Assembly: GCA_019358935.1 (NCBI GenBank)
Contig: JAHHIK010000006.1
Location: 71,597-135,596 of the forward strand
Source of the DNA: Tolypothrix carrinoi HA7290-LM1
GTDB lineage: Bacteria; Cyanobacteriota; Cyanobacteriia; Cyanobacteriales; Nostocaceae
Reading direction: 5' to 3'
Length of the DNA stretch: 64,000 bases
Under the pieces are notes generated by a model. That model saw nothing but the letters and a program-made list of their open reading frames with translations. It made no database searches and was not told the origin of the DNA. Positions 2,564-43,282 of the stretch are shown here, in pieces; the stretch's first letter is position 1, and every line of letters begins with the position of its first letter. The position numbers and the translations under genes are program-made.

Positions 2564-3904
2564 ATGAGTGAACTGCACTTGAGAGTTTATGCAAATAGGA
2601 GTGAACTGATTCTTCCTGATGGCACAGTTGAAGCCTTTCAGGAAGGAGGAATGAATCAAGCTGCAAAGACACGATACAGAAAAATAGCAACAGAGCTTTC
2701 TAACGGTTATTTAGAAAGACAAATCTTGGCTTGTAGAGATAGATCGTCAAATCTTGACTTTTCAGAACTAACACAAGCGCATAGATACCTTTTGGACAGA
2801 TTAATTCAGTCAATAACTAGTGAAGTTGGTAGAGCCTTAGTTGGGCTGACAATACTACAATTATGCGTTAAGTCAATTGAGCCAGAACAAAATATTAGAT
2901 TGCACAAAGGCAGCACAAGCACAAGAGATTTTTCTTGGTGTGATGGCATTTCTATGCGCTCTCTTGATAAACAATACATCACACCCGTTTTGCGAAGATA
3001 TGAATTGCTAAGGCTAAATGCTGATGGTTTTATGATGACTCGCAGCCTAGCAGAAAATTACCCATATTCAACCGTATACAAAGCAAACATGCGAGGTGCG
3101 CGTTCTGAGTGGGTAAGCCTTGTTGAAGCTACAGAGAAAGATGAAGTAGCTGCTGATGTTGCATTACAGTATCTTCTTTCACAGTTGCTCAATCAAGCAG
3201 ATAACTTTAAAAGATTAACTTCACAAGCGATCGAGAAACTTAATTTATTTTTTGAAGCAACGGTTATTAATCAAGAAATCGCATTAAGCCTCATTCTGCG
3301 TCACATTAATCAATCTGATTATGCTGCTCGATTAATGGAGATTGCCATGCACAGTTTGATGCAGGCTATGCAAGAGTATCAAGTTTTTCCAAACAGTCTT
3401 TTGAAACCTCTTTCACAAATGCGTTCAGCCAACAAAAAGCATGGGAATATCGGTGACATTGAACTTTTAGAAGATAGACAGATTGTGGAAGCTTGGGATG
3501 CCAAATATGGTAAATCATATCTACGAGATGAGATTGAGGAATTATCAGAAAAACTGGAGGTGCATCCTGCTGTTAGACGGGCTGGTTTTGTTACAAGTCT
3601 TGAACCTGAGCGGCTTGATGAGTTGGAACCCAGATGTGAGGAGATTTCGGAAATTTACGGAATATCTTTAGAAGTCCTGACTTTTGAAGAGTGGATTGGA
3701 GAACAGTTTGAACGTGCATTGACCGAGGAAACCGCTTCGGGGCAAGAACTTGCTGTGGCTTGGCTTACAGCGTACACCGAATCTTTGGCACAGCGACGCA
3801 GAGAAATTGCTCCGATTGACGAACCTTGTTACCAATGGCTGTTAACAATAAACGAAATCTTGACCCAAGAGCTACCGGATACCGCCCGCAGTCCCCTAGA
3901 TTAG
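2564..3904 (+). CDS. Putative type II restriction endonuclease
   Basis: Starts 7 bp after the MTase stop; PD-(D/E)xK-like GDIE...WDAK; no other recognisable domain. Confidence 0.6.
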   Translation: MSELHLRVYANRSELILPDGTVEAFQEGGMNQAAKTRYRKIATELSNGYLERQILACRDRSSNLDFSELTQAHRYLLDRLIQSITSEVGRALVGLTILQLCVKSIEPEQNIRLHKGSTSTRDFSWCDGISMRSLDKQYITPVLRRYELLRLNADGFMMTRSLAENYPYSTVYKANMRGARSEWVSLVEATEKDEVAADVALQYLLSQLLNQADNFKRLTSQAIEKLNLFFEATVINQEIALSLILRHINQSDYAARLMEIAMHSLMQAMQEYQVFPNSLLKPLSQMRSANKKHGNIGDIELLEDRQIVEAWDAKYGKSYLRDEIEELSEKLEVHPAVRRAGFVTSLEPERLDELEPRCEEISEIYGISLEVLTFEEWIGEQFERALTEETASGQELAVAWLTAYTESLAQRRREIAPIDEPCYQWLLTINEILTQELPDTARSPLD

Positions 3905-3939
3905 AGATAATATTTTTAAAGCAATAATCCTCAAAACCC

Positions 3940-4560
3940 ATGACTCAAGCCTTACCCAAGCTAGTAACCTTCGAGGAATTTGTCGATCGCCTAAGAAAAA
4001 ATTCTTCTTCACGCTACGAACTGCATAACGGAGAAATTGTTGAGATTGCACAACCAGTTGGGGAACATGAAGAAGTTAAAAGCTTTCTGGGTGTCGAAAT
4101 ACCTGTTGAAATCAAACGTCTCGGATTGCCCTACGGTATTCCCAACCAAGTTATAGTTAGACCCCCTGAAAAAGATTCTGGTTACTTTCCAGATGTTTTA
4201 GTACTAAACCGTGCAAATCTGGTAAACGAAACATTATGGAAAAAAGAATCTACCCTCAGTTTGGGTGCATCGATACCCTTAGTTATTGAGGTTGTATCAA
4301 CTAATTGGCGTGATGATTATCACTTTAAATATGCTGATTATGAAGAGATGGGCATACCTGAATACTGGATTGTCGATTATGCTGCATTAGGTGGACGTAA
4401 TTTTATCGGCAACCCCAAACAACCGACAATATCCGTCTGTAACTTGGTTGACGAGGAATATCAAATAACCAAGTTTCGAGATAATGACCGGATTGTATCC
4501 CAAACTTTTCCCGATTTAAACCTCACCGCAAACCAGATTTTTCAAGCTGGTGTAGTGTAG
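3940..4560 (+). CDS. Uma2 family endonuclease
   Basis: RYELHNGEIV, PDVLV, VIEVVS, YEEMGIPEYWIVD. Confidence 0.92.
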   Translation: MTQALPKLVTFEEFVDRLRKNSSSRYELHNGEIVEIAQPVGEHEEVKSFLGVEIPVEIKRLGLPYGIPNQVIVRPPEKDSGYFPDVLVLNRANLVNETLWKKESTLSLGASIPLVIEVVSTNWRDDYHFKYADYEEMGIPEYWIVDYAALGGRNFIGNPKQPTISVCNLVDEEYQITKFRDNDRIVSQTFPDLNLTANQIFQAGVV

Positions 4561-4636
4561 CAAACTTTTGTCTAGCTTGATGTAGCGCCCGGATGGTATT
4601 TCTCTCGAAAATCCCAAGCAAGAATTCTCAAAACCT

Positions 4637-5263
4637 ATGACCCAAGCCTTACCCAAACTACTAACCTTTGATGAATTTATCGCGTGGTATCCGGAGAAAT
4701 CTGAGGTACGCTACGAACTGCACAATGGGGTAATTGTTGAAATGCCGAAACCGAAAGGAAAACATAGTAATGTTACAGGCTTCATTATTGAAGAATTAAT
4801 CTTGGGTATCATCCAGATTGAAAAACGCGGTGTTTGGACAATTCCTAGAGAATCGATTGTAAAACCCAGTAGTGAAAAATCTGGTTATGAACCTGACATT
4901 ATTGTTTTAGATCGGGAAAACATGGGCAACGAAACACGTTGGGAAAGCGAATCAGTTATTGAAAAAGCTAGTTCAGTCAAATTAATTGTCGAGGTTGTAT
5001 CAACCAACTGGCGCGATGATTACTATTTGAAATATGCTGATTATGAAGAGATGGGTATCCCTGAATACTGGATTGTCGATTATGCTGCATTAGGTGGACG
5101 TAATTTTATCGGCAACCCCAAACAACCGACAATATCCGTCTGTAACTTAGTTGACGGAGAATATCAGATAATTAAGTTTCGAGATAGCGATCGCATTGTA
5201 TCCCAAACTTTTCCCGATTTAAACCTCACCGCAAACCAGATTTTTCAAGCTGGTGTAGTGTAA
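4637..5263 (+). CDS. Uma2 family endonuclease (tandem paralog)
   Basis: Same motifs; C-terminal ~90 aa nearly identical to the upstream copy. Confidence 0.92.
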   Translation: MTQALPKLLTFDEFIAWYPEKSEVRYELHNGVIVEMPKPKGKHSNVTGFIIEELILGIIQIEKRGVWTIPRESIVKPSSEKSGYEPDIIVLDRENMGNETRWESESVIEKASSVKLIVEVVSTNWRDDYYLKYADYEEMGIPEYWIVDYAALGGRNFIGNPKQPTISVCNLVDGEYQIIKFRDSDRIVSQTFPDLNLTANQIFQAGVV

Positions 5264-32190: not shown

Positions 32191-35100
32191 CTACTCGACT
32201 CGTTGTAATTGCGCTACTCTGGGGTCGATTATTTTTTGACCGAGAGTGGTGAATTTAATTGCTACAGATATTTTATTACCTGAGCCGAAAACATGAGTGA
32301 TTTGACCGATGCCAAAACTTTTATGCAAGACACGATCGCCTACTTGCCAATTTTGTATGTTCTGTTGTTTTCCAGGTGACACAGAAGCATTTACAGAGGG
32401 ACTTTTGGTGAAACTTTGTTTAATCTCATGAGCGCTGGTGAGTAATTCTTCTGGTAATTCGTTGAGAAACTGCGATCGCACTGCTGGTTCTCGATTTCCA
32501 TAAAGACGACGTTCGCGAGCATGTGATAAATATAACCGCTCTTGTGCGCGAGTAATACCCACATAACACAAACGACGTTCTTCTTCTAAAGCTGTTGGAT
32601 TATCTAAAGAACGATAGTTAGGAAATAATCCTTGTTCTAACCCTACCAAAAAGACAACCGGAAACTCTAATCCTTTAGAAGAATGTAAAGTCATCAGAGA
32701 AACCGCTTTTTGTCCTTCTTTTAAGTTATCCAAATCCGAACTGAGAGAAGTACTTTCCAAAAAAGCACCTAAAGAAACATCTTCGTTTTCTTCTTCAAAT
32801 TGCAGCACTGCGTTATAAAGTTCTTTGACGTTTAGCAAGCGGTTGTCAGCTTCTTCTGTACCTTGATTTTGCAAATCTTGAACGTAACCAGAAGCTTCTA
32901 GCAATTTTTCTACAATCTCGGAAACGGGAACTGTGCTGACTTGTTCTTGCAACTTGCGAATCATTTGGGCAAAGTTATTTACAGCTTTCGCTGAACGTCC
33001 AGCTAATGTATTAACTGATGTATCGTCGATAAGTATTTCCCACAATGTTGTCCCTAATTGTTGAGCCGCGTTAGTCAAAGCGTCTATGGTGGCTTTACCA
33101 ATACCGCGTCGAGGAGTGTTAATAACTCGTAACAAACTTAGAGTATCCGATGGGTTTGCGATCGCCTTTAAATAACTTAATACATCTTTAATTTCTTTGC
33201 GATCGTAAAATTTCAATCCTCCGACAATTGTATAAGGTATTCCCGCTCGCACTAAAGCTTCTTCAAAAGGACGAGATTGAGCATTGGTGCGATAAAGTAT
33301 GGCAAAGTTACCCCAATTAACTTCGGGATTTTGCCTTTCTAAAGTGCGAATTTGATTAATTACAAATGCGGCTTCCGCGATTTCATCATCTGCTTTGTGA
33401 CAATAAATTTGTTCACCGACTCCCCGCGTCGGTTTGAGAATTTTATCAATTCGTTGGGTGTTATTTTCTATTAGTTGGTTCGCAGCTTCAAGAATATTTT
33501 CGCACGAACGATAATTTTCTTCTAATTTTACCATTGTGCGGGTATCTTCATCTGGCAAATTATCACCAAAGTCTTGCTGAAACTCTAATAAGATGGTAAA
33601 ATCAGCCATTCTAAAAGAGTAAATGGAGTTATGTACTAGAACTCCGTTGGCAACGTAGGTATGAGCAATGTCCACTTCTAAATCGTAAACTGCGCCTTCA
33701 TACTCTTGTTGAAACACTTCTTCTATTTCATGCTCTTCTAATTGTCCATCCACATCCACCAAGACTTTCATCCCTGAGTGTAAGTGAGAAAGAGGCATAA
33801 AATCATAAGTGACACCTTTTACCAATGCTCGGCGGCGAATTTCTAAAGCCTCGGCTTCAGCTATTTTATGAGCCATAGCAAGAGCTTCTTTGTAGGAAAT
33901 GGCAGTTTCTAGTCGATAACCTTGATGATTTTTACCGGAACGAATTGAGAAACCAGCCGCTTGCAAATTGCTAGCAATGTCACTACGATTAGAACACCAC
34001 TGTAAGCGATGATAGCTAGCAGACCTCTGACTCTCAAGCCTGGGTGTACCAAACATTACCAAATTTAGTGTCTGTCTTCTGTCACCATTTTGTGGACGAT
34101 AATGGGGAAATTCTGGATGCAACCACAAATCCTGCATCAAGCAATGAGCATTAGTGATGGTATCAATTTCTTGGAACAAACGAAAAAACCATTCATCACT
34201 CATGCGTAATTTACGACCATCACTATGAAAAACTATAGTTGGTAGACCATATTTAGCTGCATAGTAGGCTTCATAGTACCAAGCTTCTTCATAAGAAGAA
34301 GTTGTTTTAAGTACCCAGAGTTTGTCAGCATGTTCTTGTGTCGCTCGGATTCTAAAGCCCAAATCCTCTTTGCCATAATCGTTACTACGCAAACTTTTGG
34401 TCATTCCTACGCGATAACCTCTGTCCGCCCTGTACATTAAGTAAACATAGTAACGCCCAGCTTGTGGAACCATCCTCGCGAGGACAATGTGATGAGGAGT
34501 ACCTTTAAGTAAGTGTTTCCCTGCACGAACACACCAAAGAGAACCAGAAAAGTATCCCTTTTTGATGTGAGTAACTGTGCTTGGATAAAGTTGATGTTGA
34601 CCACTGGGTGCTAAAACTTGATCTCCTACCTTCAAAGTCTCAATTGGTACAGAACCTTCGCAAGTATTGATTTCAGTTCCTGGTGGAAGGCACTGATCTG
34701 CATCACCGACAACAAAAACCGAGCGATCGCCCCAATCCCATTCACTCTTATTATTTTCACCGTTCGTTACCAACAAGCGAATCAGGTCGTACTGAGTGCG
34801 GTTAGTATCTTGATATTCATCTACAAGGATATGGCGGAATTTCCGATGCCAATAACCTAATACTTGTTCGTTTTGCTGAAACAGTTTGACAGGAATTAAA
34901 ATCAAATCATCAAAATCAAGAGCGTTATTTTGTGCTAGCCTATCTTGATAGCAACTATAAACTTCCGCAACGACTCGTCCCCAATATTTAGGGTTCTCTG
35001 TTTCAAATTCTTGAGGTGATAAACCTTGATTTTTCGCGTTACTGATAGCGTAACGCACCGAACGCGGTTCAAATTTCTTATCATCTAAATTTAATTGCTT

Positions 35101-35592
35101 GGTGACGATTTCTTTGACAATGCTTTGAGAGTCAGAGTCATCAAAAATCGAGAAATTGCGATTCCAACGCCGTCCTTTTTCATCTTGATATTTTTCGATA
35201 TCAAAGCGAAGAATCCGAGAAAATAAACTGTGGAAAGTTCCACACCACAAGTCTTTGATATAAATGCGATAAACTTTTGACTTTAGTTGAATTTGTTGGT
35301 ATTCTGTCAACAAATCAAAACGCTCACCGTATTCTGACATCGCCAACTGTTCGGCAAAAAGCTTTTGAATCCGCTCTTTCATTTCCCGTGCGGCTTTGTT
35401 AGTGAAAGTAACCGCTAGGATATTTTCTGGATCGACACGGTGTTTAAGAATCAGATTAGCAATGCGATAAGTCAGCGCTCGTGTTTTACCCGAACCGGCG
35501 CCAGCAACAACTAGCAGCGGACCGCAAAAGTGTTCGACGGCTTGACGTTGGGATGGGTTCAGGTGGCTGAGGAAATCAATTGTTGTCGTCAT
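32191..35592 (-). CDS. pcrA: ATP-dependent DNA helicase PcrA/UvrD, intein-containing
   Basis: AGAGSGKT, TFTNKAA, VDEYQD, GDADQ/SIY, LEENYRS, TLHSSKGLEF, EERRLCYVGITRA; 778 aa after intein removal. Confidence 0.95.
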   Translation of the reverse strand: MTTTIDFLSHLNPSQRQAVEHFCGPLLVVAGAGSGKTRALTYRIANLILKHRVDPENILAVTFTNKAAREMKERIQKLFAEQLAMSEYGERFDLLTEYQQIQLKSKVYRIYIKDLWCGTFHSLFSRILRFDIEKYQDEKGRRWNRNFSIFDDSDSQSIVKEIVTKQLNLDDKKFEPRSVRYAISNAKNQGLSPQEFETENPKYWGRVVAEVYSCYQDRLAQNNALDFDDLILIPVKLFQQNEQVLGYWHRKFRHILVDEYQDTNRTQYDLIRLLVTNGENNKSEWDWGDRSVFVVGDADQCLPPGTEINTCEGSVPIETLKVGDQVLAPSGQHQLYPSTVTHIKKGYFSGSLWCVRAGKHLLKGTPHHIVLARMVPQAGRYYVYLMYRADRGYRVGMTKSLRSNDYGKEDLGFRIRATQEHADKLWVLKTTSSYEEAWYYEAYYAAKYGLPTIVFHSDGRKLRMSDEWFFRLFQEIDTITNAHCLMQDLWLHPEFPHYRPQNGDRRQTLNLVMFGTPRLESQRSASYHRLQWCSNRSDIASNLQAAGFSIRSGKNHQGYRLETAISYKEALAMAHKIAEAEALEIRRRALVKGVTYDFMPLSHLHSGMKVLVDVDGQLEEHEIEEVFQQEYEGAVYDLEVDIAHTYVANGVLVHNSIYSFRMADFTILLEFQQDFGDNLPDEDTRTMVKLEENYRSCENILEAANQLIENNTQRIDKILKPTRGVGEQIYCHKADDEIAEAAFVINQIRTLERQNPEVNWGNFAILYRTNAQSRPFEEALVRAGIPYTIVGGLKFYDRKEIKDVLSYLKAIANPSDTLSLLRVINTPRRGIGKATIDALTNAAQQLGTTLWEILIDDTSVNTLAGRSAKAVNNFAQMIRKLQEQVSTVPVSEIVEKLLEASGYVQDLQNQGTEEADNRLLNVKELYNAVLQFEEENEDVSLGAFLESTSLSSDLDNLKEGQKAVSLMTLHSSKGLEFPVVFLVGLEQGLFPNYRSLDNPTALEEERRLCYVGITRAQERLYLSHARERRLYGNREPAVRSQFLNELPEELLTSAHEIKQSFTKSPSVNASVSPGKQQNIQNWQVGDRVLHKSFGIGQITHVFGSGNKISVAIKFTTLGQKIIDPRVAQLQRVE
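33628..34692 (-). mobile_element. Intein (355 aa) in PcrA motif III
   Basis: GDADQ|CLPPGT...GTPHH (block B)...VYDLEV...TYVANGVLVHN|SIYSFR. Confidence 0.95.
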
Positions 35593-35997: not shown

Positions 35998-36249
35998 ATG
36001 CTGTCAGTCAAAGGCACATTTCAAAACGGTGTGATTCATCCAACCGAACCGATTGAAGGACGTGAGGGACAATCAGTTATTATTGTTTTTGTAGAAGACG
36101 ACAACACACCTCAACCTGCACCAAAAGAGAACTCAGATTGGCATAAGCTCAGACAGTTGATAAAAGATTCTCAGGTTGATACTGGTATTGACGATTTAGC
36201 ACATCAACATGACCATTATCTATATAAAACGCCGAAGCGAGAAGAATAA
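35998..36249 (+). CDS. DUF104/AF2212-like antitoxin (VapB-type)
   Basis: VKGTFQNGVIHPTEPI...EGQSVII; DLAHQHDHYLY tail; precedes a PIN toxin. Confidence 0.8.
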   Translation: MLSVKGTFQNGVIHPTEPIEGREGQSVIIVFVEDDNTPQPAPKENSDWHKLRQLIKDSQVDTGIDDLAHQHDHYLYKTPKREE

Positions 36250-36252
36250 ACC

Positions 36253-36660
36253 TTGACGAAAGTTTTTGTAGATACAGCTGCTTGGATTGCCCTTCTTAAT
36301 GTTAGGGATGCACTTCACCAACAGGCAAATGATGTCATGGACAAACTAGTGCGTCTGAAAACACCTTTGGTAACAACAGAATTTGTACTATTGGAGGTGG
36401 CTGACGCTTTGTCTACACCAGCAAGCCGCAGTCAGACACTTGCTTTCATCAACAGTTTGCGAGTTTTGGAAAGTTTGCAAATCGTCTCTGTCAGCCAAAA
36501 ATTGCTTGATGAAGGTTGGGCGTTTTACAGCCAGCGTCCTGATAAAGATTGGGGGTTAACTGACTGTATCAGTTTTGTAGTAATGACACAGGAGGGAATT
36601 ACTCAAGCTTTTACATCCGATCGCCATTTTCAGCAAGCAGGATTTGTCAAACTGTTGTAA
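36253..36660 (+). CDS. vapC: PIN-domain toxin (VapC family)
   Basis: VFVDTAAWIAL, LTDCISF, AFTSDRHFQQAGF. Confidence 0.9.
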   Translation: MTKVFVDTAAWIALLNVRDALHQQANDVMDKLVRLKTPLVTTEFVLLEVADALSTPASRSQTLAFINSLRVLESLQIVSVSQKLLDEGWAFYSQRPDKDWGLTDCISFVVMTQEGITQAFTSDRHFQQAGFVKLL

Positions 36661-36870: not shown

Positions 36871-38511
36871 TCATTGCACAGTTTCTCTGAGCAGATTTAG
36901 TAGGTTGTGTTCTGTGTATGCGATCGCTTCCCCAGAATACCCGTGCAGCAATGAGCGCAAATTTTTCAAATGCATCTCTACCCCGCTTGCGTCTTTGAAT
37001 TTCAGGTGCAGACGTTCTTTAATCCGTGTCAGGATAAAACCTACTTGAATCGCTTTGATGTTGTCAGGCTCATCTTCCTTAACTAGTGCATGAATTCTTA
37101 GCAACCCTAGCTTTTCGATGGAGTTAGCTTGCATCGCTTCAATTATATCTTGAACAATTTGTTCGATGAATTGATTGATGACATAGCTCATCACTACAGG
37201 TTCAAGGGTGAATAAAGTTTCATGGCTACAGCAAGATGTTTGTTTTTCAATCAGCGCAGACGTAGTTTTATCAATTAAACATCGCCTTCCTAGAGATTCT
37301 AGCGCAGCCAGTAATTCCGAACAAGACACTTTAACCCCTAAGTTAGTTTTTAATTGAGCCAGGGAAATCGGCTGATATTCAATTGCCAAACAGTACAAAA
37401 TTGCCTTTTCTAAATCAGACAAGCGCTGAAAATGTTGGTTCAGAATGTGAGAAAAAATATCCCCAATTACTAAAGAGCTTTGTCCGATAAACTCAGTAAT
37501 ATTACCATTAAATAAATCTTGAATTGTAGTAGCAATAGTTTTTAAGGCGCTGGGATGACCTCGGTATATTTCAATTAACTCGTCTAACTTGTTCTCTGTA
37601 CCATAAAGACCTTTGGTAGCCAAAAGTTGTTTAGCATCTTTTGGCTTTAAGCCTTTAACTTCTAAAACACGTACAGGTGAAGTTTCACCAGCTTGAAAAA
37701 CAACTTCTATAGGTTTTTCCCGACTAACTAATACTAATGTGCTTTGGTGGCGTTCTCCTCCCACTCGTTTGAGAAATTCACCATAATCTTCATATCCTTG
37801 TCGATAGTATCCAGCGATATCTCCACCGCGCAAAATTGTCTCCCAATCATCTAGGATTAGCAAACAGCGGTGAGTTCGCAATTTTTTTAACAAAAGCGAT
37901 ATTTGAAGCTCGATTGTTGCTGGTAGTGTTTCTAATTCGCTGCCGAAAAATTGATTTAAATCTGTCAAAATTGCCAATAATGAAGGTGCATAGTGAAGAC
38001 TTCGCCAAATCAGATATTCAAACTCACCTTGAATCTGTTCTGCTAATTTAACGGCAAGAGATGTTTTGCCAATTCCCCCCATACCCAACAGCGTCACTAA
38101 ACGGCAACGGTCTTGTACTATCCATTGATTGAGGGTAGCAAGTTCATCAATGCGACCAAAGAAAACAGAAACATCAATTGCCTCACCCCAATCACAATGA
38201 TGAGTTTTGAATTCTGAGTTAGGAGTTATTATTCTCTCCATCACCTCAGGTGTTAATTGCCGTTCCAAGGCTACCTGAAAATTCGTTTTACTAACCTTTT
38301 CTCCCAGTACTTCCGAAAGTAGTTGCCATAATTTTGGACCAATATCTTGTTTTAAGTAGTCAGCAGTATATCCATAAGCTTCTGCAATCTCGTGATACTT
38401 CTGACCTTGCCACGAACCGCGAAGTATTGCCACTTCAATATCTTTTAGATGTCTTTTTCTCTTGGCAAAAACTGCTGTATCAACAACTTTGAATGCTTCT
38501 TCAAAGTCCAT
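36871..38511 (-). CDS. HTH + NB-ARC (STAND) protein without C-terminal WD40 sensor
   Basis: N-terminal HTH-like ILRGSWQGQKYHEIA...GPKLWQLLS; DWGEA..FFGR; Walker A GMGGIGKT; Walker B LLILDD; ends at NLLNLL; start set at MDFEEA. Confidence 0.85.
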   Translation of the reverse strand: MDFEEAFKVVDTAVFAKRKRHLKDIEVAILRGSWQGQKYHEIAEAYGYTADYLKQDIGPKLWQLLSEVLGEKVSKTNFQVALERQLTPEVMERIITPNSEFKTHHCDWGEAIDVSVFFGRIDELATLNQWIVQDRCRLVTLLGMGGIGKTSLAVKLAEQIQGEFEYLIWRSLHYAPSLLAILTDLNQFFGSELETLPATIELQISLLLKKLRTHRCLLILDDWETILRGGDIAGYYRQGYEDYGEFLKRVGGERHQSTLVLVSREKPIEVVFQAGETSPVRVLEVKGLKPKDAKQLLATKGLYGTENKLDELIEIYRGHPSALKTIATTIQDLFNGNITEFIGQSSLVIGDIFSHILNQHFQRLSDLEKAILYCLAIEYQPISLAQLKTNLGVKVSCSELLAALESLGRRCLIDKTTSALIEKQTSCCSHETLFTLEPVVMSYVINQFIEQIVQDIIEAMQANSIEKLGLLRIHALVKEDEPDNIKAIQVGFILTRIKERLHLKFKDASGVEMHLKNLRSLLHGYSGEAIAYTEHNLLNLLRETVQ

Positions 38512-38958
38512 TGTTCCGACGTACATCTCACTACAGGGATACATATTAAATTTGCAACTTTCCGGATTTGTTCGTTGTGTTGCGTAAATAGCGAATAATT
38601 CGAGACAAATCCCTATTTTCATAATTTTATTTGTAAACAGGGAAATTGCCTGAGTACTATTCAGCACTTACACATTGACAAAAATTTGATTATGTTAATC
38701 AGACTTATTAAATTCCTTCTTTAATTAAATGCAAGCAAAATCAACTTATGCAGTGCCTGAGATATAAATGAAAAGTTTTTGCGCTCATCTGACTATTGCC
38801 CAAGCGCACCTAAGTTAACACTGGCTCGTTACGCATACAATAATCGATTTGTCAAGTATTAAGCCTTACTATTGTAAAAAAGTTGCTGATACTTTCGCAG
38901 TACCCTCAAGGGTAATATTCAGTTGGAGTGTTGCAGAAAAGACTTCAATTTACAGCAC

Positions 38959-38992: not shown

Positions 38993-39147
38993 GTTTTGCA
39001 AATGCGATCGCCAAGATAAAAGTCCTTAACTTATCCATATCGACGGTTGAAAGTTTATAAGCGAACCTGTTAGTAACGGTTCAGAAACAAGCTTATGAAA
39101 GCAACTGAACCGCCAAAAAAGTCACAAACAAACAGGAGTTCAAATTT

Positions 39148-39261
39148 ATGAAAACTATGACATCCACAAAGCAAGAACTGAAACCGATGAAGAAATTCGT
39201 CATCCGCGAAGCCGAAACGCTCAAGACCACGAGACCAGCTATGTATAATCCTGATTGCTAG
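39148..39261 (+). CDS. Unannotated 37-aa peptide MKTMTSTKQELKPMKKFVIREAETLKTTRPAMYNPDC, putative precursor
   Basis: AGGAG RBS upstream of the ATG, double TAG TAG stop, downstream hairpins, precedes an RRE-like-M50 protease. Confidence 0.75.
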   Translation: MKTMTSTKQELKPMKKFVIREAETLKTTRPAMYNPDC

Positions 39262-39294
39262 TAGTTCACCAAAGCAAATTTGATGGTCGTGAAA

Positions 39295-39350
39295 GTTCGT
39301 AGTAAGGGCTTCAGCCCTTGTAATTGAGCGATAAATCGCTCACTACGAAC
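39295..39350. repeat. REP-like double-hairpin repeat
   Basis: gttcgtagt-aagggct/agccctt-gagcgat/atcgctc-actacgaac. Confidence 0.7.
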
Positions 39351-39385
39351 CACGCAAACATTGAGCGTCAGTTAAGTGCTTATGA

Positions 39386-39417
39386 TTGGAATCGCCATTC
39401 CTAGATGGCGGTTCCAA
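39386..39417 (+). terminator. Stem-loop between the peptide gene and the protease gene
   Basis: ttggaatcgccat-tcctag-atggcggttccaa, 13-bp stem with one G-U pair; no U-tract. Confidence 0.55.
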
Positions 39418-39439
39418 CTACCCTTGAAGGAAAATATCA

Positions 39440-40669
39440 ATGGGGCAGTATACAGGTGACATGCTTGTTGCGGTTTATCCGTTTACTCGGCAATCTGAGG
39501 GTGAGGAAGTCGTCATCGGACGTACAGATACTGCTGTGTTCTTGGTCTTACCGTCTGATGCTGTAGAACTGCTGGATTACCTGGCGGACGGTAAGACGGT
39601 GAGTCAAGCCCAATCATTATATCAGGAAAAGTATGGTGAAGTTCCTGATATCGAGGAGTTGCTGGACTTTCTAGAGCGCAAGGGGTTCGTCCAATTCTTA
39701 GAAAAAAATGGAAATACAGTATTTGTCTCAAGCGCTGAAAAACCAACTCAATTACGCTTTCACTTCGCGAATTTTCCCCGATCGCTAGCCCAAAGATTAT
39801 TCAGCCGTCCGGTGCTGATTAGCTGTGGTGTCCTAATCGGTCTAGCTTTGGTAGCGATCGCCCTCGAACCTTCTATTGTACCAGGATGGGGGGCGCACTT
39901 TTTCCAGAAAAACTTGACGCTGATGCGTTTGGTTTTGATTCTGATGAGCTACTTGGTGCTATTTTTACACGAAATGGCTCATTTAATTGCTGCGCGAGCC
40001 GTTGGTGTTTCCTCTCGCATGGGTATCAGCAATCGTCTCTGGATACTGGTAGCAGAAACAGATATGACCGGGGTCTGGGCAGTACCTAGAAATCAACGCT
40101 ATTTACCATTTATCGCTGGTTCACTGCTGGATGCAGTTTCTGCTTCGGTCCTGACTCTAATGTTGTTTGCCCACAGTCACGCATGGCTGGTGCTGCCTTT
40201 GGTTGTTTTCCAACTCAGTCGAGCGATGTTGCTGATCTATCTGCTTGGTCTGCTTTGGCAATGCTACTTTTTTGTCCGCACCGACTTTTATTATGTCATT
40301 GGCAATTTCTTCAGATGCAAAAGCTTGATGAAAGACACCGAGGTATACCTGCGTAACCAATTAGCTCGATTCACTCGCTCGGTACGCAAGGTAAATCAGT
40401 CTCACATCCCGGCATTTGAAAGACGTGTGATTCGCATTTATGCAATTCTCTGGCTCGTGGGTCGTATTGCCGCTTTTGGAGTCTTATTCTTGATTAGCAT
40501 TCCGTTGATGTGGCACTACTATTTGGCTGTTTTCGGTGTTTTAAGTGCTGGGTATCAGACTAACCCTTACGCCTTTATCGATGCATTATTAATGCTATTA
40601 CTTGTTCTCACCCCCAAGGGTGTCGGCTTTTGGCTTTGGATTCGTAGTTTTCGTTCTTCACAGAGGTGA
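39440..40669 (+). CDS. M50-like intramembrane zinc metalloprotease with N-terminal PqqD/RRE-like domain
   Basis: Short beta-strands then helices (AVELLDYLADGKTVSQAQSLY...IEELLDFLERKGFV); HEMAH in a TM segment; ETD, AGSLLD, RTDFYY; multiple TM helices. Confidence 0.8.
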   Translation: MGQYTGDMLVAVYPFTRQSEGEEVVIGRTDTAVFLVLPSDAVELLDYLADGKTVSQAQSLYQEKYGEVPDIEELLDFLERKGFVQFLEKNGNTVFVSSAEKPTQLRFHFANFPRSLAQRLFSRPVLISCGVLIGLALVAIALEPSIVPGWGAHFFQKNLTLMRLVLILMSYLVLFLHEMAHLIAARAVGVSSRMGISNRLWILVAETDMTGVWAVPRNQRYLPFIAGSLLDAVSASVLTLMLFAHSHAWLVLPLVVFQLSRAMLLIYLLGLLWQCYFFVRTDFYYVIGNFFRCKSLMKDTEVYLRNQLARFTRSVRKVNQSHIPAFERRVIRIYAILWLVGRIAAFGVLFLISIPLMWHYYLAVFGVLSAGYQTNPYAFIDALLMLLLVLTPKGVGFWLWIRSFRSSQR

Positions 40670-40675
40670 TTATTT

Positions 40676-42679
40676 ATGGAATGGCAGCATAACATGCCGA
40701 CACAACCCTTAAACTTGACTGGTGAGGTGATTTTGTTAGAAGCAGAACCCGGTCAGTCTCGTCGCGATCGCCTACAGCAATGTCTCCACCAAGCCCAAGC
40801 TAGTGGAGCATCTACTTGGCTGTTATCGTGCGATCGCGATCAAGGCGGTCTTTGGGCTGGTCTAAAGGATCTGTTAAACGATTTAATCCCCAAAATCCAG
40901 GCTGAAGCACCCGATTTGCTCATCAAGCACGATTATGAGTTAGTCAGTGTTTTACCTGCCTTGCAGCGAACAATATCGGTTCGGAACCCGACCTTAACGG
41001 ACACAGTTCGGGCACACGAGCAGGTGCGGAACTATCCAGCTGACCGAACTTTTCGGATCGTGCATGGACTGATCGATCTCCTGGCTGCTTGGCATCAACG
41101 CGATCCTCACTCTGCCTGGATAATTGCCTGCGATCGCTTTGATCGTGCTGGGGCTTTAGTACGCCGCTTTTTTGTTGAACTGATGCGTCGTCGCGGTCAA
41201 CAATTGCATCTGACTCTGCTGATTGCTACTGACCCAATGAAGAGTGAAACTGTAGTTAGTCAGTTTGACGCTAAGTACCTGGGACAGTGCATACGATTGA
41301 ACCTGCCAGCCGATCCGACTACCTCCGTCTGCCAACAGGAAATGCGCCGCTTGACCGAAGAACTTGAACAGCAGGTAGGAGAAGATGCAATCGAGCTAGA
41401 GATTTATCTGCCACAGCTGATTCGTTATTGCTTACTTAGTAACCAACCAGAGAAAGCTCTCAGCTATCAAATACAAGCTTGCATAATCTATACCAGACGG
41501 GGTTTTTACGAGGATGGCTTAGTTTATGGTGAAGCTGCCTTGGCACAGCTGGAGCGTTACTGCCCGGAGGACATGCAAAAGCGCTGTATTATTTATGCAA
41601 AGCTATACGGATGTTATACAGCTCTGGGCAGACCTTTGCAAGCCCTTCAGGTGATGGAGGAGACAATGGCTAAGGCAGACAATCCAGATCAGCTGTTTCG
41701 AGGCTGCTACATGATAGCTATGCTGTACGCCCGCTTTCTTCTGGACCGTGACCTAACTAAGGCTGAAGCTTACCTAGAACGAGGCTTGCAAGAACTAACG
41801 CGAACCGACCTACCGAAACACTTAAAACTTTTTCATACTGCCTTTAACCGCAATGGGTTGGCGCTGTTACGGCATCGCCAAGGGCGATCGCATGAGGCTG
41901 TGGAAATATGTCAGTTTTGCTTTGAGCAACTCAACGCTCATCTCAAACCAAATGAACATCTTCTTCATCGGTCGGTTTTGCTGTATAATATTGCTCAGGT
42001 TTATACTGCCATTGGTTCTCATGAAGAGGCTATTTCTTACCTAACCAATGCGATGGCAATGGACTCCAATTATTCCGAATACTACAACGATCGCGGCAAC
42101 TTATACTTTAAGCTCGGTCGCTTCCAGGATGCCCTGCAAGACTATTTGAAAGCGATCGAGTTAAGTCCCCCTTATTGGGAGGTTTGGTCAAATTTAGGAC
42201 AGTGCTATCGCTCCTTAAGTAAAATTACTGAAGCTATAAATGCTTTTTCCACCGCTATTGATTTAGATCCAAATCAATTTTCAGCTCTGCTAGCACGCGC
42301 AGAAGTATTTGAGATGTTAGAGCAGCCGGACGCAGCCTTGGCAGATTATAATGCAGCATTAGCTTTAGATGCCAACCAGCCTCTAGCACTAGCAAATCGT
42401 GCCATTTTACATTACGATGCCGGATGCTATGAAGAAGCTTTGGCAGATTTAGAAAGGGCGATCGCTCTCTCACCAGAAACTGCCGATTTATACCAAAATC
42501 GGGCAGTAGCATTAACTTCTTTGGGACGTTTTCAAGAAGCAGCACGGGATTTGAAGACTTACCTACAGTTGTGTCCTTTTGCCGAAGATCGTCCCGAAGT
42601 GGAAAGCCAGCTATTAGCTCTACAAACTAACTGTCAATCATTGTCCACATCTGCAAATACAGATTCTAAATCCCGATAA
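40676..42679 (+). CDS. TPR protein with degenerate ATPase-like N-terminal domain
   Basis: Multiple C-terminal TPRs (YYNDRGNLY, WSNLGQCY, LANRAILH, YQNRAVAL); N-terminal VILLEAEPGQSRR and WIIACDRFD resemble decayed Walker A/B. Confidence 0.8.
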   Translation: MEWQHNMPTQPLNLTGEVILLEAEPGQSRRDRLQQCLHQAQASGASTWLLSCDRDQGGLWAGLKDLLNDLIPKIQAEAPDLLIKHDYELVSVLPALQRTISVRNPTLTDTVRAHEQVRNYPADRTFRIVHGLIDLLAAWHQRDPHSAWIIACDRFDRAGALVRRFFVELMRRRGQQLHLTLLIATDPMKSETVVSQFDAKYLGQCIRLNLPADPTTSVCQQEMRRLTEELEQQVGEDAIELEIYLPQLIRYCLLSNQPEKALSYQIQACIIYTRRGFYEDGLVYGEAALAQLERYCPEDMQKRCIIYAKLYGCYTALGRPLQALQVMEETMAKADNPDQLFRGCYMIAMLYARFLLDRDLTKAEAYLERGLQELTRTDLPKHLKLFHTAFNRNGLALLRHRQGRSHEAVEICQFCFEQLNAHLKPNEHLLHRSVLLYNIAQVYTAIGSHEEAISYLTNAMAMDSNYSEYYNDRGNLYFKLGRFQDALQDYLKAIELSPPYWEVWSNLGQCYRSLSKITEAINAFSTAIDLDPNQFSALLARAEVFEMLEQPDAALADYNAALALDANQPLALANRAILHYDAGCYEEALADLERAIALSPETADLYQNRAVALTSLGRFQEAARDLKTYLQLCPFAEDRPEVESQLLALQTNCQSLSTSANTDSKSR

Positions 42680-42939
42680 CCACTAACTACCCGCACAATC
42701 ACAACACTATCTTCAAAAACTCGATAAAAAATAATGTAGCCATCCAACGGGATTCCTCTGGTCCTGGGGTCAAACTTGGCGTAACTTCGCCCTATATTCG
42801 GGAATTGAGCTATATTTTGGCATTTTTTATTAAATTCTCGAATAAATCTTTCCCCTGCGTTGACATTGCGAACTAAAAAATAATCCAAAATTTCATCTAA
42901 ATCTTGGCTTGCTTCCTTGGCAATAAAGTATTCCATCAT
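42634..42939 (-). CDS. parE: ParE/RelE family toxin
   Basis: ASQDLDEILDY, FPNIGR, YIIFYR, IVRVVSGYRDL. Confidence 0.9.
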   Translation of the reverse strand: MMEYFIAKEASQDLDEILDYFLVRNVNAGERFIREFNKKCQNIAQFPNIGRSYAKFDPRTRGIPLDGYIIFYRVFEDSVVIVRVVSGYRDLESVFADVDND

Positions 42940-43202
42940 CCTTGAGTGTCACGGGCTTTGCGTAATTTCTCCTCCAGTCGTGCCATCACCACTTCACCAT
43001 CTATTACGTCTCCACGTTCGATAGAAAAAAGCCCAGCAGCTAGTTTTTTCTTAGTTTCTTCTTCCCATTCCTGATAACCCTTCTCCCATTCTTCCAGCAG
43101 TTTCAATGCTTTAACAATCACATCTTCAGCATTTTCATATCTACCTGTAGCAATTCGGGTTTGTATAAATTGCTCATATTCCGCTTTCAGTTGGATGTTC
43201 AT
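42936..43202 (-). CDS. parD: ParD-family RHH antitoxin
   Basis: MNIQLKAEYEQFIQ...GRYENAEDVIVKALKLL; ATGA overlap with the toxin. Confidence 0.88.
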   Translation of the reverse strand: MNIQLKAEYEQFIQTRIATGRYENAEDVIVKALKLLEEWEKGYQEWEEETKKKLAAGLFSIERGDVIDGEVVMARLEEKLRKARDTQG

Positions 43203-43282
43203 AGTTTTTACCACACTTGATTTTTTCTGACTTTTGTACAGACGTTCGGTGTGGAACGTCTCTACAACTCCTGTATTCTTTT

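Follow-up and report, generated by a model that had tools for sequence, protein, structure and literature searches.

A variable precursor peptide and a STAND-derived tetratricopeptide repeat protein as a candidate new class of ribosomal peptide biosynthesis

Epipeptide (Yyd) clusters need an adjacent radical SAM epimerase, while RRNPP receptors carry an N-terminal helix-turn-helix (HTH) domain or three-helix bundle ahead of their tetratricopeptide repeats (TPRs) and respond to secreted pro-peptides with a hydrophobic signal region. Among peptides that are ribosomally synthesized and then modified post-translationally (RiPPs), the daptides (MpaA/MpaP) feature a RiPP recognition element (RRE) fused to an intramembrane site-2 protease (bioRxiv 10.1101/2023.03.08.531785, accessible part). 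BhaC1 is a flavin mononucleotide-dependent TPR enzyme that trihydroxylates Trp on a scaffold peptide (PMC11002830, accessible part); an obvious flavin domain is lacking, and K391, K654 and N472 are modelled as substrate contacts, with K654 on the free carboxylate of the substrate (PMC9850906, accessible part). Here, we analyze a 64,000-nucleotide stretch of the Tolypothrix carrinoi HA7290-LM1 genome (contig JAHHIK010000006.1, positions 71,597 to 135,596; hereafter the window) with an operon encoding a 37-residue precursor peptide, a 409-residue membrane protease, and a 667-residue TPR protein. We regard the precursor together with the TPR protein as a candidate new RiPP class and give even chances to a fuller reading of this undescribed class in which the TPR protein would oxidize an internal Tyr of the peptide before the RRE-bearing protease removes the leader.

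The layout of the operon, whose genes are single-copy in the genome, is as originally described, with two stem-loops followed by the protease gene and, 6 nt after its stop, the TPR gene; a further hairpin lies in front of the protease gene. In window positions, the features are:

39134..39138, + strand: Shine-Dalgarno-like AGGAG, 9 nt upstream of the precursor ATG (from the sequence)
39148..39261, + strand: precursor gene, 37 aa, double stop; leader MKKFVIREAETLKTT, core RPAMYNPDC
39303..39320 and 39325..39342, + strand: two short stem-loops 3' of the precursor gene
39386..39417, + strand: strong 14-bp hairpin directly 5' of the protease gene
39440..40669, + strand: RRE-M50 protease gene, RRE (residues 1–90) plus site-2/M50 zinc protease
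40676..42679, + strand: gene for a STAND-derived pseudo-NTPase with TPRs, 667 aa; proposed modifying enzyme, probable remote homologue of BhaC1/AmmC1
36871..38667, − strand: divergent NB-ARC STAND gene (Pfam NB-ARC, E 1.3e-11); operon membership not established

Judged by its conservation, the 37-residue open reading frame (ORF) is a genuine conserved precursor. Using the protease as query, we collected 31 genome loci from Cyanobacteria, Chloroflexota, Myxococcota, Acidobacteriota, Actinomycetota, and Pseudomonadota (closest protease relative: Tolypothrix, 90% identical). The ORF with its AGGAG ribosome-binding site and double stop is present as first described, and a precursor lies upstream of the protease in 30 of these 31 loci, in one to five copies per locus; the sole locus without one has just 202 nt of upstream sequence. 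The charged leader with a conserved motif that had been proposed, KFVIREAETLKTT, is borne out among relatives, with the consensus KKFxIRExETxKTT (30 of 31 protease loci). Searching loci L001–L112 with a pattern made from the leader only, so that core residues lay outside it, yielded 109 ORFs at 80 loci, including 92 distinct peptides that are not 92 independent events, many Nostoc copies being near-identical. Beyond the basic leader stands a conserved aromatic residue at the third to fifth position, usually Tyr and occasionally Trp or His: Tyr in 91 of the 92 distinct peptides and His in the remaining one, with at least one Cys downstream of the Tyr in 89 and a tail of 4–29 residues beyond it. 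The most conserved core residue is Tyr (codon 33, at 39244) and not the terminal Cys, on which the original emphasis had been placed, and cores in the M50 clade are rich in Cys. His or Trp replaces the conserved Tyr in L006, L115, L122, L129, L156, and L157, natural variants that bear on substrate scope. Within 70 nt past the stop of the last precursor gene, hairpins reach z <= −2 in 21 of 31 tested loci, completing a set of precursor hallmarks with the constant leader, the hypervariable core, and up to five tandem copies. At the contig start of L018 (positions 1–135), a precursor shows an internally repeated leader-core unit, possibly produced when tandem copies were misassembled.

In the window itself, the spacer between precursor and protease genes folds at z −6.58 (0 of 200 shuffles as good), and locus L001 carries a near-identical counterpart of the 39386..39417 hairpin; the stem-loops at 39303..39342 likely serve mRNA stabilization or attenuation. 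Promoter and terminator scans of the window came out at chance level (10 vs 11.1 and 6 vs 5.7). The precursor has no hydrophobic signal region (maximal 7-residue hydropathy 0.57), and the earlier statement that the operon has no radical SAM, YcaO, LanM, or ABC gene holds.

The constant partner of the precursor is the TPR protein, not the protease. Among the 31 protease loci, a TPR core follows downstream in 28, the other three contigs ending shortly past the protease, and inspection of their ORF lists (partly with Pfam) revealed no conserved neighbor apart from the TPR gene. Via the TPR protein, we kept 80 of 196 metagenome loci, of which 58 have an M50 gene upstream, one a fragment, two a divergent M50, and six none, with 13 too short; the precursor is present in all six loci without protease. 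ABC genes adjoin the TPR gene in four protease-free loci (L038, L039, L053, and the L100 region), as far as their contigs reach, and the myxobacterial L154, L156, and L157 hold peptide and TPR gene with no protease or exporter recognized alongside. More distant TPR members came from plasmid searches, and at 13 of 15 inspected plasmid-record loci a K-rich upstream peptide was seen by eye, its short core having Tyr in 10 of 13 and His, Phe/His, or Trp in the other three; no peptide was found in Acinetobacter L119 and L125 or in L152. The genes recorded by carrier are:

Bacillus cereus, Listeria: TPR and MFS
Klebsiella, Pantoea: TPR, MFS, and S9 or alpha/beta hydrolase
Priestia, B. badius: TPR, small protein, O-methyltransferase, and MFS (plus GNAT)
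Exiguobacterium: three peptide copies, ThiF, O-methyltransferase, and MFS
B. thuringiensis: MFS, cupin, and S9 peptidase
Kitasatospora: PCMT-type methyltransferase
Streptomyces: RRE-M50
Streptobacillus, Nonomuraea: peptide and TPR

The O-methyltransferases beside TPR genes belong to Pfam Methyltransf_3, a family that takes in catechol methyltransferases. With Bacillota and Fusobacteriota added to the six phyla of the protease loci, the peptide/TPR family covers eight phyla. Its carriers are rare and patchy, with 2 of 301 sampled cyanobacterial genomes (this one included) and 3/401 and 11/251 genomes in two further sampled phyla (those of G301 and G302). When 1.84 billion representatives were searched with the profile, 208 matched at E <= 1e-30, including a few generic multi-TPR proteins. 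The Klebsiella TPR homologue had no phage match. The Acinetobacter plasmids L119 and L125 pair TPR with MFS, the TPR gene of L125 being fragmented. Bacillales L116, L121, and L124 share an unannotated acidic protein of 77–84 aa along with the O-methyltransferase, and the C-terminal residue of their peptides is Asn; L124 also has a ThiF adenylyltransferase, in what we take to be a reminiscence of microcin C logic.

The persistence of peptide and TPR protein across swapped partners favors a RiPP class over the original idea that this is not a classical RiPP cluster, which no longer leads. It also bears on the earlier proposal of an RRNPP-like sensor. In such peptide signaling, the M50 protease would set free the core without modification, and after re-import the core would bind the TPR protein, a Rap-like receptor working by protein-protein contacts; this would make for a peptide-sensing system common to cyanobacteria, myxobacteria, enterobacteria, and bacilli of which we found no report either. 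We consider this unlikely: the TPR protein lacks an output domain, DNA-binding or other, stays with the peptide where the protease is swapped for exporters, peptidases, or tailoring enzymes or is lost, resembles NprR/Rap in structure no better than LGN or OGT, and matches the peptide-oxidizing BhaC1/AmmC1 family. RNPP_C is absent among the best 25 of its 32 Pfam matches, and two Bacillales clusters (L116 and L124) already have separate, genuine HTH-RNPP_C regulators close by. In L116, that regulator (4115–5178) and then an unannotated 40-aa ORF, which we take to resemble a PapR-type signal precursor, stand directly upstream of the family cluster.

The N terminus of the protease (residues 1–90) adopts an RRE (PqqD-like) fold of three strands and three helices, and its site-2/M50 motif is intact, with HExxH and a downstream Asp zinc ligand within transmembrane helices, in agreement with the RRE-like and HExxH features first noted. 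H177, E178, H181, and D282 are invariant in protease homologues, many of which carry the JGI label "putative peptide zinc metalloprotease", and the protease profile had 0 matches at E <= 1 among solved structures. We predict that the RRE-M50 protein is the leader peptidase.

The TPR protein is modeled at a confidence (pLDDT) of 94 as an alpha/beta N domain (pseudo-NTPase, residues ~15–210) followed by atypical (~255–450) and canonical (~435–650) TPRs. Its N domain is homologous to AAA_16 signal transduction ATPases with numerous domains (STAND NTPases) in profile comparison (E 1e-6; residues 14–450, E 2.8e-10), and Atlas structure matches place it there as well. Fold searches with the TPR profiles and the model found generic TPR proteins only and barely covered the N domain; an Atlas search with the core alone likewise returned generic TPRs only. 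On these profile and fold matches the protein is a STAND NTPase descendant and now a pseudo-ATPase, as the original term "degenerate-ATPase-TPR protein" implied. Walker A reads AEPGQSRR in the window, not GxxGxGK[ST], and the P-loop is deleted in plasmid members from Klebsiella, Pantoea, Listeria, and B. cereus. A clade of ~780-aa members has a near-intact Walker A and retains the AAA_16 match and a GxP-like motif; three of four such members read, and L128, have GxxGxGK without the S/T. Because Walker A is degenerate or deleted in members, ATP hydrolysis appears unlikely as a family-wide function.

Over 49 diverse family members, Y345, R353, F390, and N438 are invariant (49/49), and D463 (48), N393 (47), G276 (47), R118 (45), H431 (43), and T108 (42) nearly so; T108 and R118 sit in a lid insertion that canonical STANDs do not have. 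The complex prediction that had been suggested for peptide and TPR protein scored 0.55 vs 0.01 for the best control and lends weak support to binding, with contact agreement of at least 43% and partner pLDDT of at least 52 across runs. The mark for this score is reached by 116/157 solved and 2/215 mismatched pairs, and scores <=0.60 hold only 18/157 solved pairs, yet both mismatches.

Comparison of the TPR protein with BhaC1 and AmmC1 proper was visual and used the published alignment, in whose accessible part the order of motifs is the same as in the window protein (PMC9850906). The computed tests use five homologues, namely a Kitasatospora protein encoded between a BhaA-like precursor gene and genes of the peptide aminoacyl-tRNA ligase (PEARL) type, and four myxobacterial ones that match the Myxococcus row of the supplement. 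These five matched 59 diverse TPR family members at 97.5% probability (E 5e-12, 420 columns, hhalign) and the close TPR family at 64% (E 6.5e-5). Without the canonical TPR tail (residues 14–450), the match stayed at 96.4% (E 1.1e-9) with a score of 76.9, the best of 20 block shuffles reaching 22.2, and each half matched the BhaC1-like profile on its own (N half, E 1.3e-5; C half, E 1.2e-5). BhaC1-like proteins and the TPR family have the lid insertion in common, while canonical AAA_16 STANDs do not have it. The equivalents of BhaC1 K391 and N472 align with R353 and N438, both 49/49, and the BhaC1-like W-x-x-N-x-x-A-L helix aligns with F390-N393-A396-L397. We therefore consider homology to BhaC1/AmmC1 probable and a sister relationship of the two families plausible, but the comparisons do not place the TPR protein within the BhaC1 family itself. 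The TKLNRPF motif with K654, present in the published alignment and in L178–L182 and L184, is absent from the window protein, and because it is missing, an internal rather than a terminal target would fit.

Several observations weigh against the reading of the TPR protein as an oxidizing enzyme, the loss of that motif among them. Simple peptide binding would account equally well for the invariant Asn, Arg, Tyr, and Phe residues of the TPR helices. A generic TPR control matches BhaC1 in its TPR half only, yet does so at E 7.5e-6 (score 53.9). The BhaC1-like profile found no match in nine canonical AAA_16 STANDs (E 0.7 and 0.14), which favors the link to the TPR family, but part of this contrast may reflect power, the control being less diverse (effective number of sequences 3.2 vs 7.6). 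The HMMs of the TPR family did not detect the BhaC1-like sequences (E > 1), and a query built from nothing but five near-identical myxobacterial sequences reached 2.3% and 1.2% probability, with the register as expected. An enzyme acting on Tyr, Trp, or His at the key position would have to be tolerant, and the M50 clade has no conserved exporter. Finally, AmmC2 of the ammosamide cluster is a TPR protein thought to be non-catalytic (PMC12424672, accessible part).

This last precedent of a presumed scaffold lends itself to an explanation without catalysis by the TPR protein, which would instead shield the peptide as a chaperone or adaptor and pass it on to proteases, exporters, or enzymes whose genes lie elsewhere; the product would be a proteolyzed peptide that is possibly disulfide-bonded or metal-binding. 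It would be consistent with the Cys-rich cores of the M50 clade, the loss of the C-terminal BhaC1 motif, and the lack of any recognizable catalytic or metal motif among the invariant residues of the 49 members. However, a two-gene locus of peptide and TPR protein offers nothing to receive the peptide, the homology to a proven enzyme family spans both domains, and one aromatic position is conserved while the remaining core is free, so that we hold such a role to be fairly unlikely. Rather improbable in our view is an enzyme with other chemistry, for instance one that modifies the Tyr hydroxyl in a nucleotide-dependent manner or forms an aromatic-Cys cross-link by another route. NTPase ancestry, the near-intact Walker A and AAA_16 matches of the ~780-aa clade, and conserved T108, R118, R353, H431, and R432 that could bind phosphate speak for it, but the window protein has a degenerate P-loop, those of Klebsiella, Pantoea, Listeria, and B. 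cereus have none, and the only characterized relatives are flavin hydroxylases.

On balance, catalysis by the TPR protein appears probable. Flavin-type oxidation of the ring, drawn by analogy with BhaC1, falls slightly short of an even chance. More tentatively still, we propose as a joint claim a STAND-derived flavoenzyme, sister to BhaC1/AmmC1, that would oxidize an internal Tyr (or Trp/His) without PEARLs across at least eight phyla and yield catechol/quinone or Tyr-Cys-linked peptides. In our main reading, hairpins 3' of the precursor gene would raise precursor mRNA above enzyme mRNA, the TPR groove would bind the precursor, and the pseudo-NTPase lid would shut over the Tyr, whereupon a bound flavin would hydroxylate the ring as in BhaC1 to give a catechol or quinone. 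In this Cys-rich clade, we speculate that a nearby Cys traps the quinone, and in the Bacillales clade that a catechol-type O-methyltransferase caps the new ring hydroxyl. The RRE would then read the leader and the M50 site cut near ETLKTT, freeing the core at the inner membrane; in clusters without M50, S9 peptidases and MFS/ABC exporters would take over leader removal and release.

Apparent pearlin-type pathways turned up separately. The BhaA-like precursor motif was found in 24 of 26 genomes of one myxobacterial genus (L158–L171, L178–L182). No C1 gene lies in the surroundings of the myxobacterial precursors, and in five of five checked genomes the BhaC1-like gene is distant from the precursor (megabases in four, a separate contig in one), which suggests a dispersed, near-core pearlin-type pathway in this genus. 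On a Kitasatospora plasmid, L184 (8300–19773) has a complete-looking pearlin cluster with a BhaA-like precursor, a BhaC1-like gene annotated "hypothetical", MFS, and three genes annotated as lantibiotic dehydratase, two of which match Lant_dehydr_N. The BhaA-like motif occurred in 0 of 301 genomes of an actinobacterial family, where a single match to the C-terminal motif was dismissed as a chance frame; a protein search for BhaC1 homologues found 0 of 381, and no relative came up when viral sequences were scanned with the Kitasatospora BhaC1-like protein.

The surroundings of the operon invite another comparison. A ParE/ParD pair (42634–43214, − strand) shares 46 nt with the end of the TPR gene, and on the other side (35998–36660, + strand) there is a PIN gene preceded by a small partner, so that toxin-antitoxin modules flank the operon on both sides. 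A toxin-antitoxin or defense system, in which the peptide neutralizes a toxic TPR protein until the protease removes it under stress, would be in line with this setting, with plasmid/transposon contexts elsewhere, and with patchily distributed two-gene loci that have the small gene first. We regard it as very improbable given tandem precursors with variable cores, the RRE, exporters, and tailoring enzymes, and the absence of an effector domain. The divergent NB-ARC gene stops without an obvious sensor repeat, and its relatives or fragments of them flank the precursor in L001–L004 and L019; XRE-STAND-TPR genes adjoin the precursor in L009 and L011. It is possibly a regulator of the operon. Further upstream, a UvrD/PcrA-like helicase (32191–35592, − strand) has an apparent intein insertion by eye (Cys start, His-Asn end before Ser). 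Directly downstream of the family operon in L145, inspection revealed a graspetide-like cluster (3012–4100, − strand) of precursor, ATP-grasp, PpiC-like, and C39-ABC-like genes; its ATP-grasp gene, having its own precursor, was not counted as a partner.

We found no description of this system in the full-text literature, though the protease could appear in supplements or subscription papers, and neither the peptide nor the TPR family has a named model in NCBIfam or Pfam. The main text of the RRE-Finder paper (PMC7470986), in its accessible part, has no TPR or M50 wording, while its supplementary RRE-family tables, and those of the daptide preprint, could list the protease; LPPs (PMC13381572) and biphenomycin-like clusters (PMC12257519), in the accessible parts of these papers, are different systems or do not mention this one. 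Because RiPP mining keys on known enzymes, clusters in which only a "tetratricopeptide repeat protein" is constant are easily overlooked. If the TPR protein is catalytic, two genes would give access to new chemistry at an aromatic residue, with the hypervariable core left free. The orphan family of BhaC1 enzymes would gain a much larger sister group, and its origin would lie in STAND signaling ATPases through a receptor-to-enzyme transition.

Among known systems, daptides share the RRE as an N-terminal fusion with an intramembrane site-2 protease and several short precursor genes per cluster. However, the leader here is KKFxIRExETxKTT and not the daptide ELExMEAP, there is no invariant C-terminal Thr, and a TPR protein is present with no conserved aminotransferase, dehydrogenase, or DUF-RRE seen. 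Epipeptide clusters (YydFGHIJ/LiaK-type, NCBIfam NF058609) likewise have a membrane HExxH protease beside a short precursor, but our protease scores 16.6 against a cutoff of 225, and the operon has neither a radical SAM epimerase nor a conserved ABC pair. With RRNPP systems (Rap, NprR, PlcR), the locus has in common a TPR superhelix carrying conserved Asn residues near a short peptide gene; unlike there, the N terminus is an alpha/beta, STAND-derived pseudo-NTPase, and the peptide gene lies upstream and has a RiPP-type leader/core anatomy without signal region. AAA_16/MalT-type STANDs resemble the TPR protein in their homologous N domain and TPR array, from which it differs by a degenerate or deleted P-loop, a gained lid insertion, the absence of an effector domain, and, in the clade of the window, the loss of middle helical domains. 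The closest likeness is to BhaC1/AmmC1, which are also TPR-annotated proteins without an obvious cofactor domain, give a colinear profile match over pseudo-NTPase, lid, and atypical TPRs, and have a partner peptide that offers an aromatic residue. Unlike in those pathways, the leader is basic where their scaffold is acidic, no PEARL (Lant_dehydr-type) genes were seen in the peptide/TPR operons, about six canonical TPRs replace the C-terminal TKLNRPF motif, and the target is encoded, internal, and mostly Tyr instead of a tRNA-appended C-terminal Trp, in a system that pairs with RRE-M50, MFS/ABC, or S9 peptidases.

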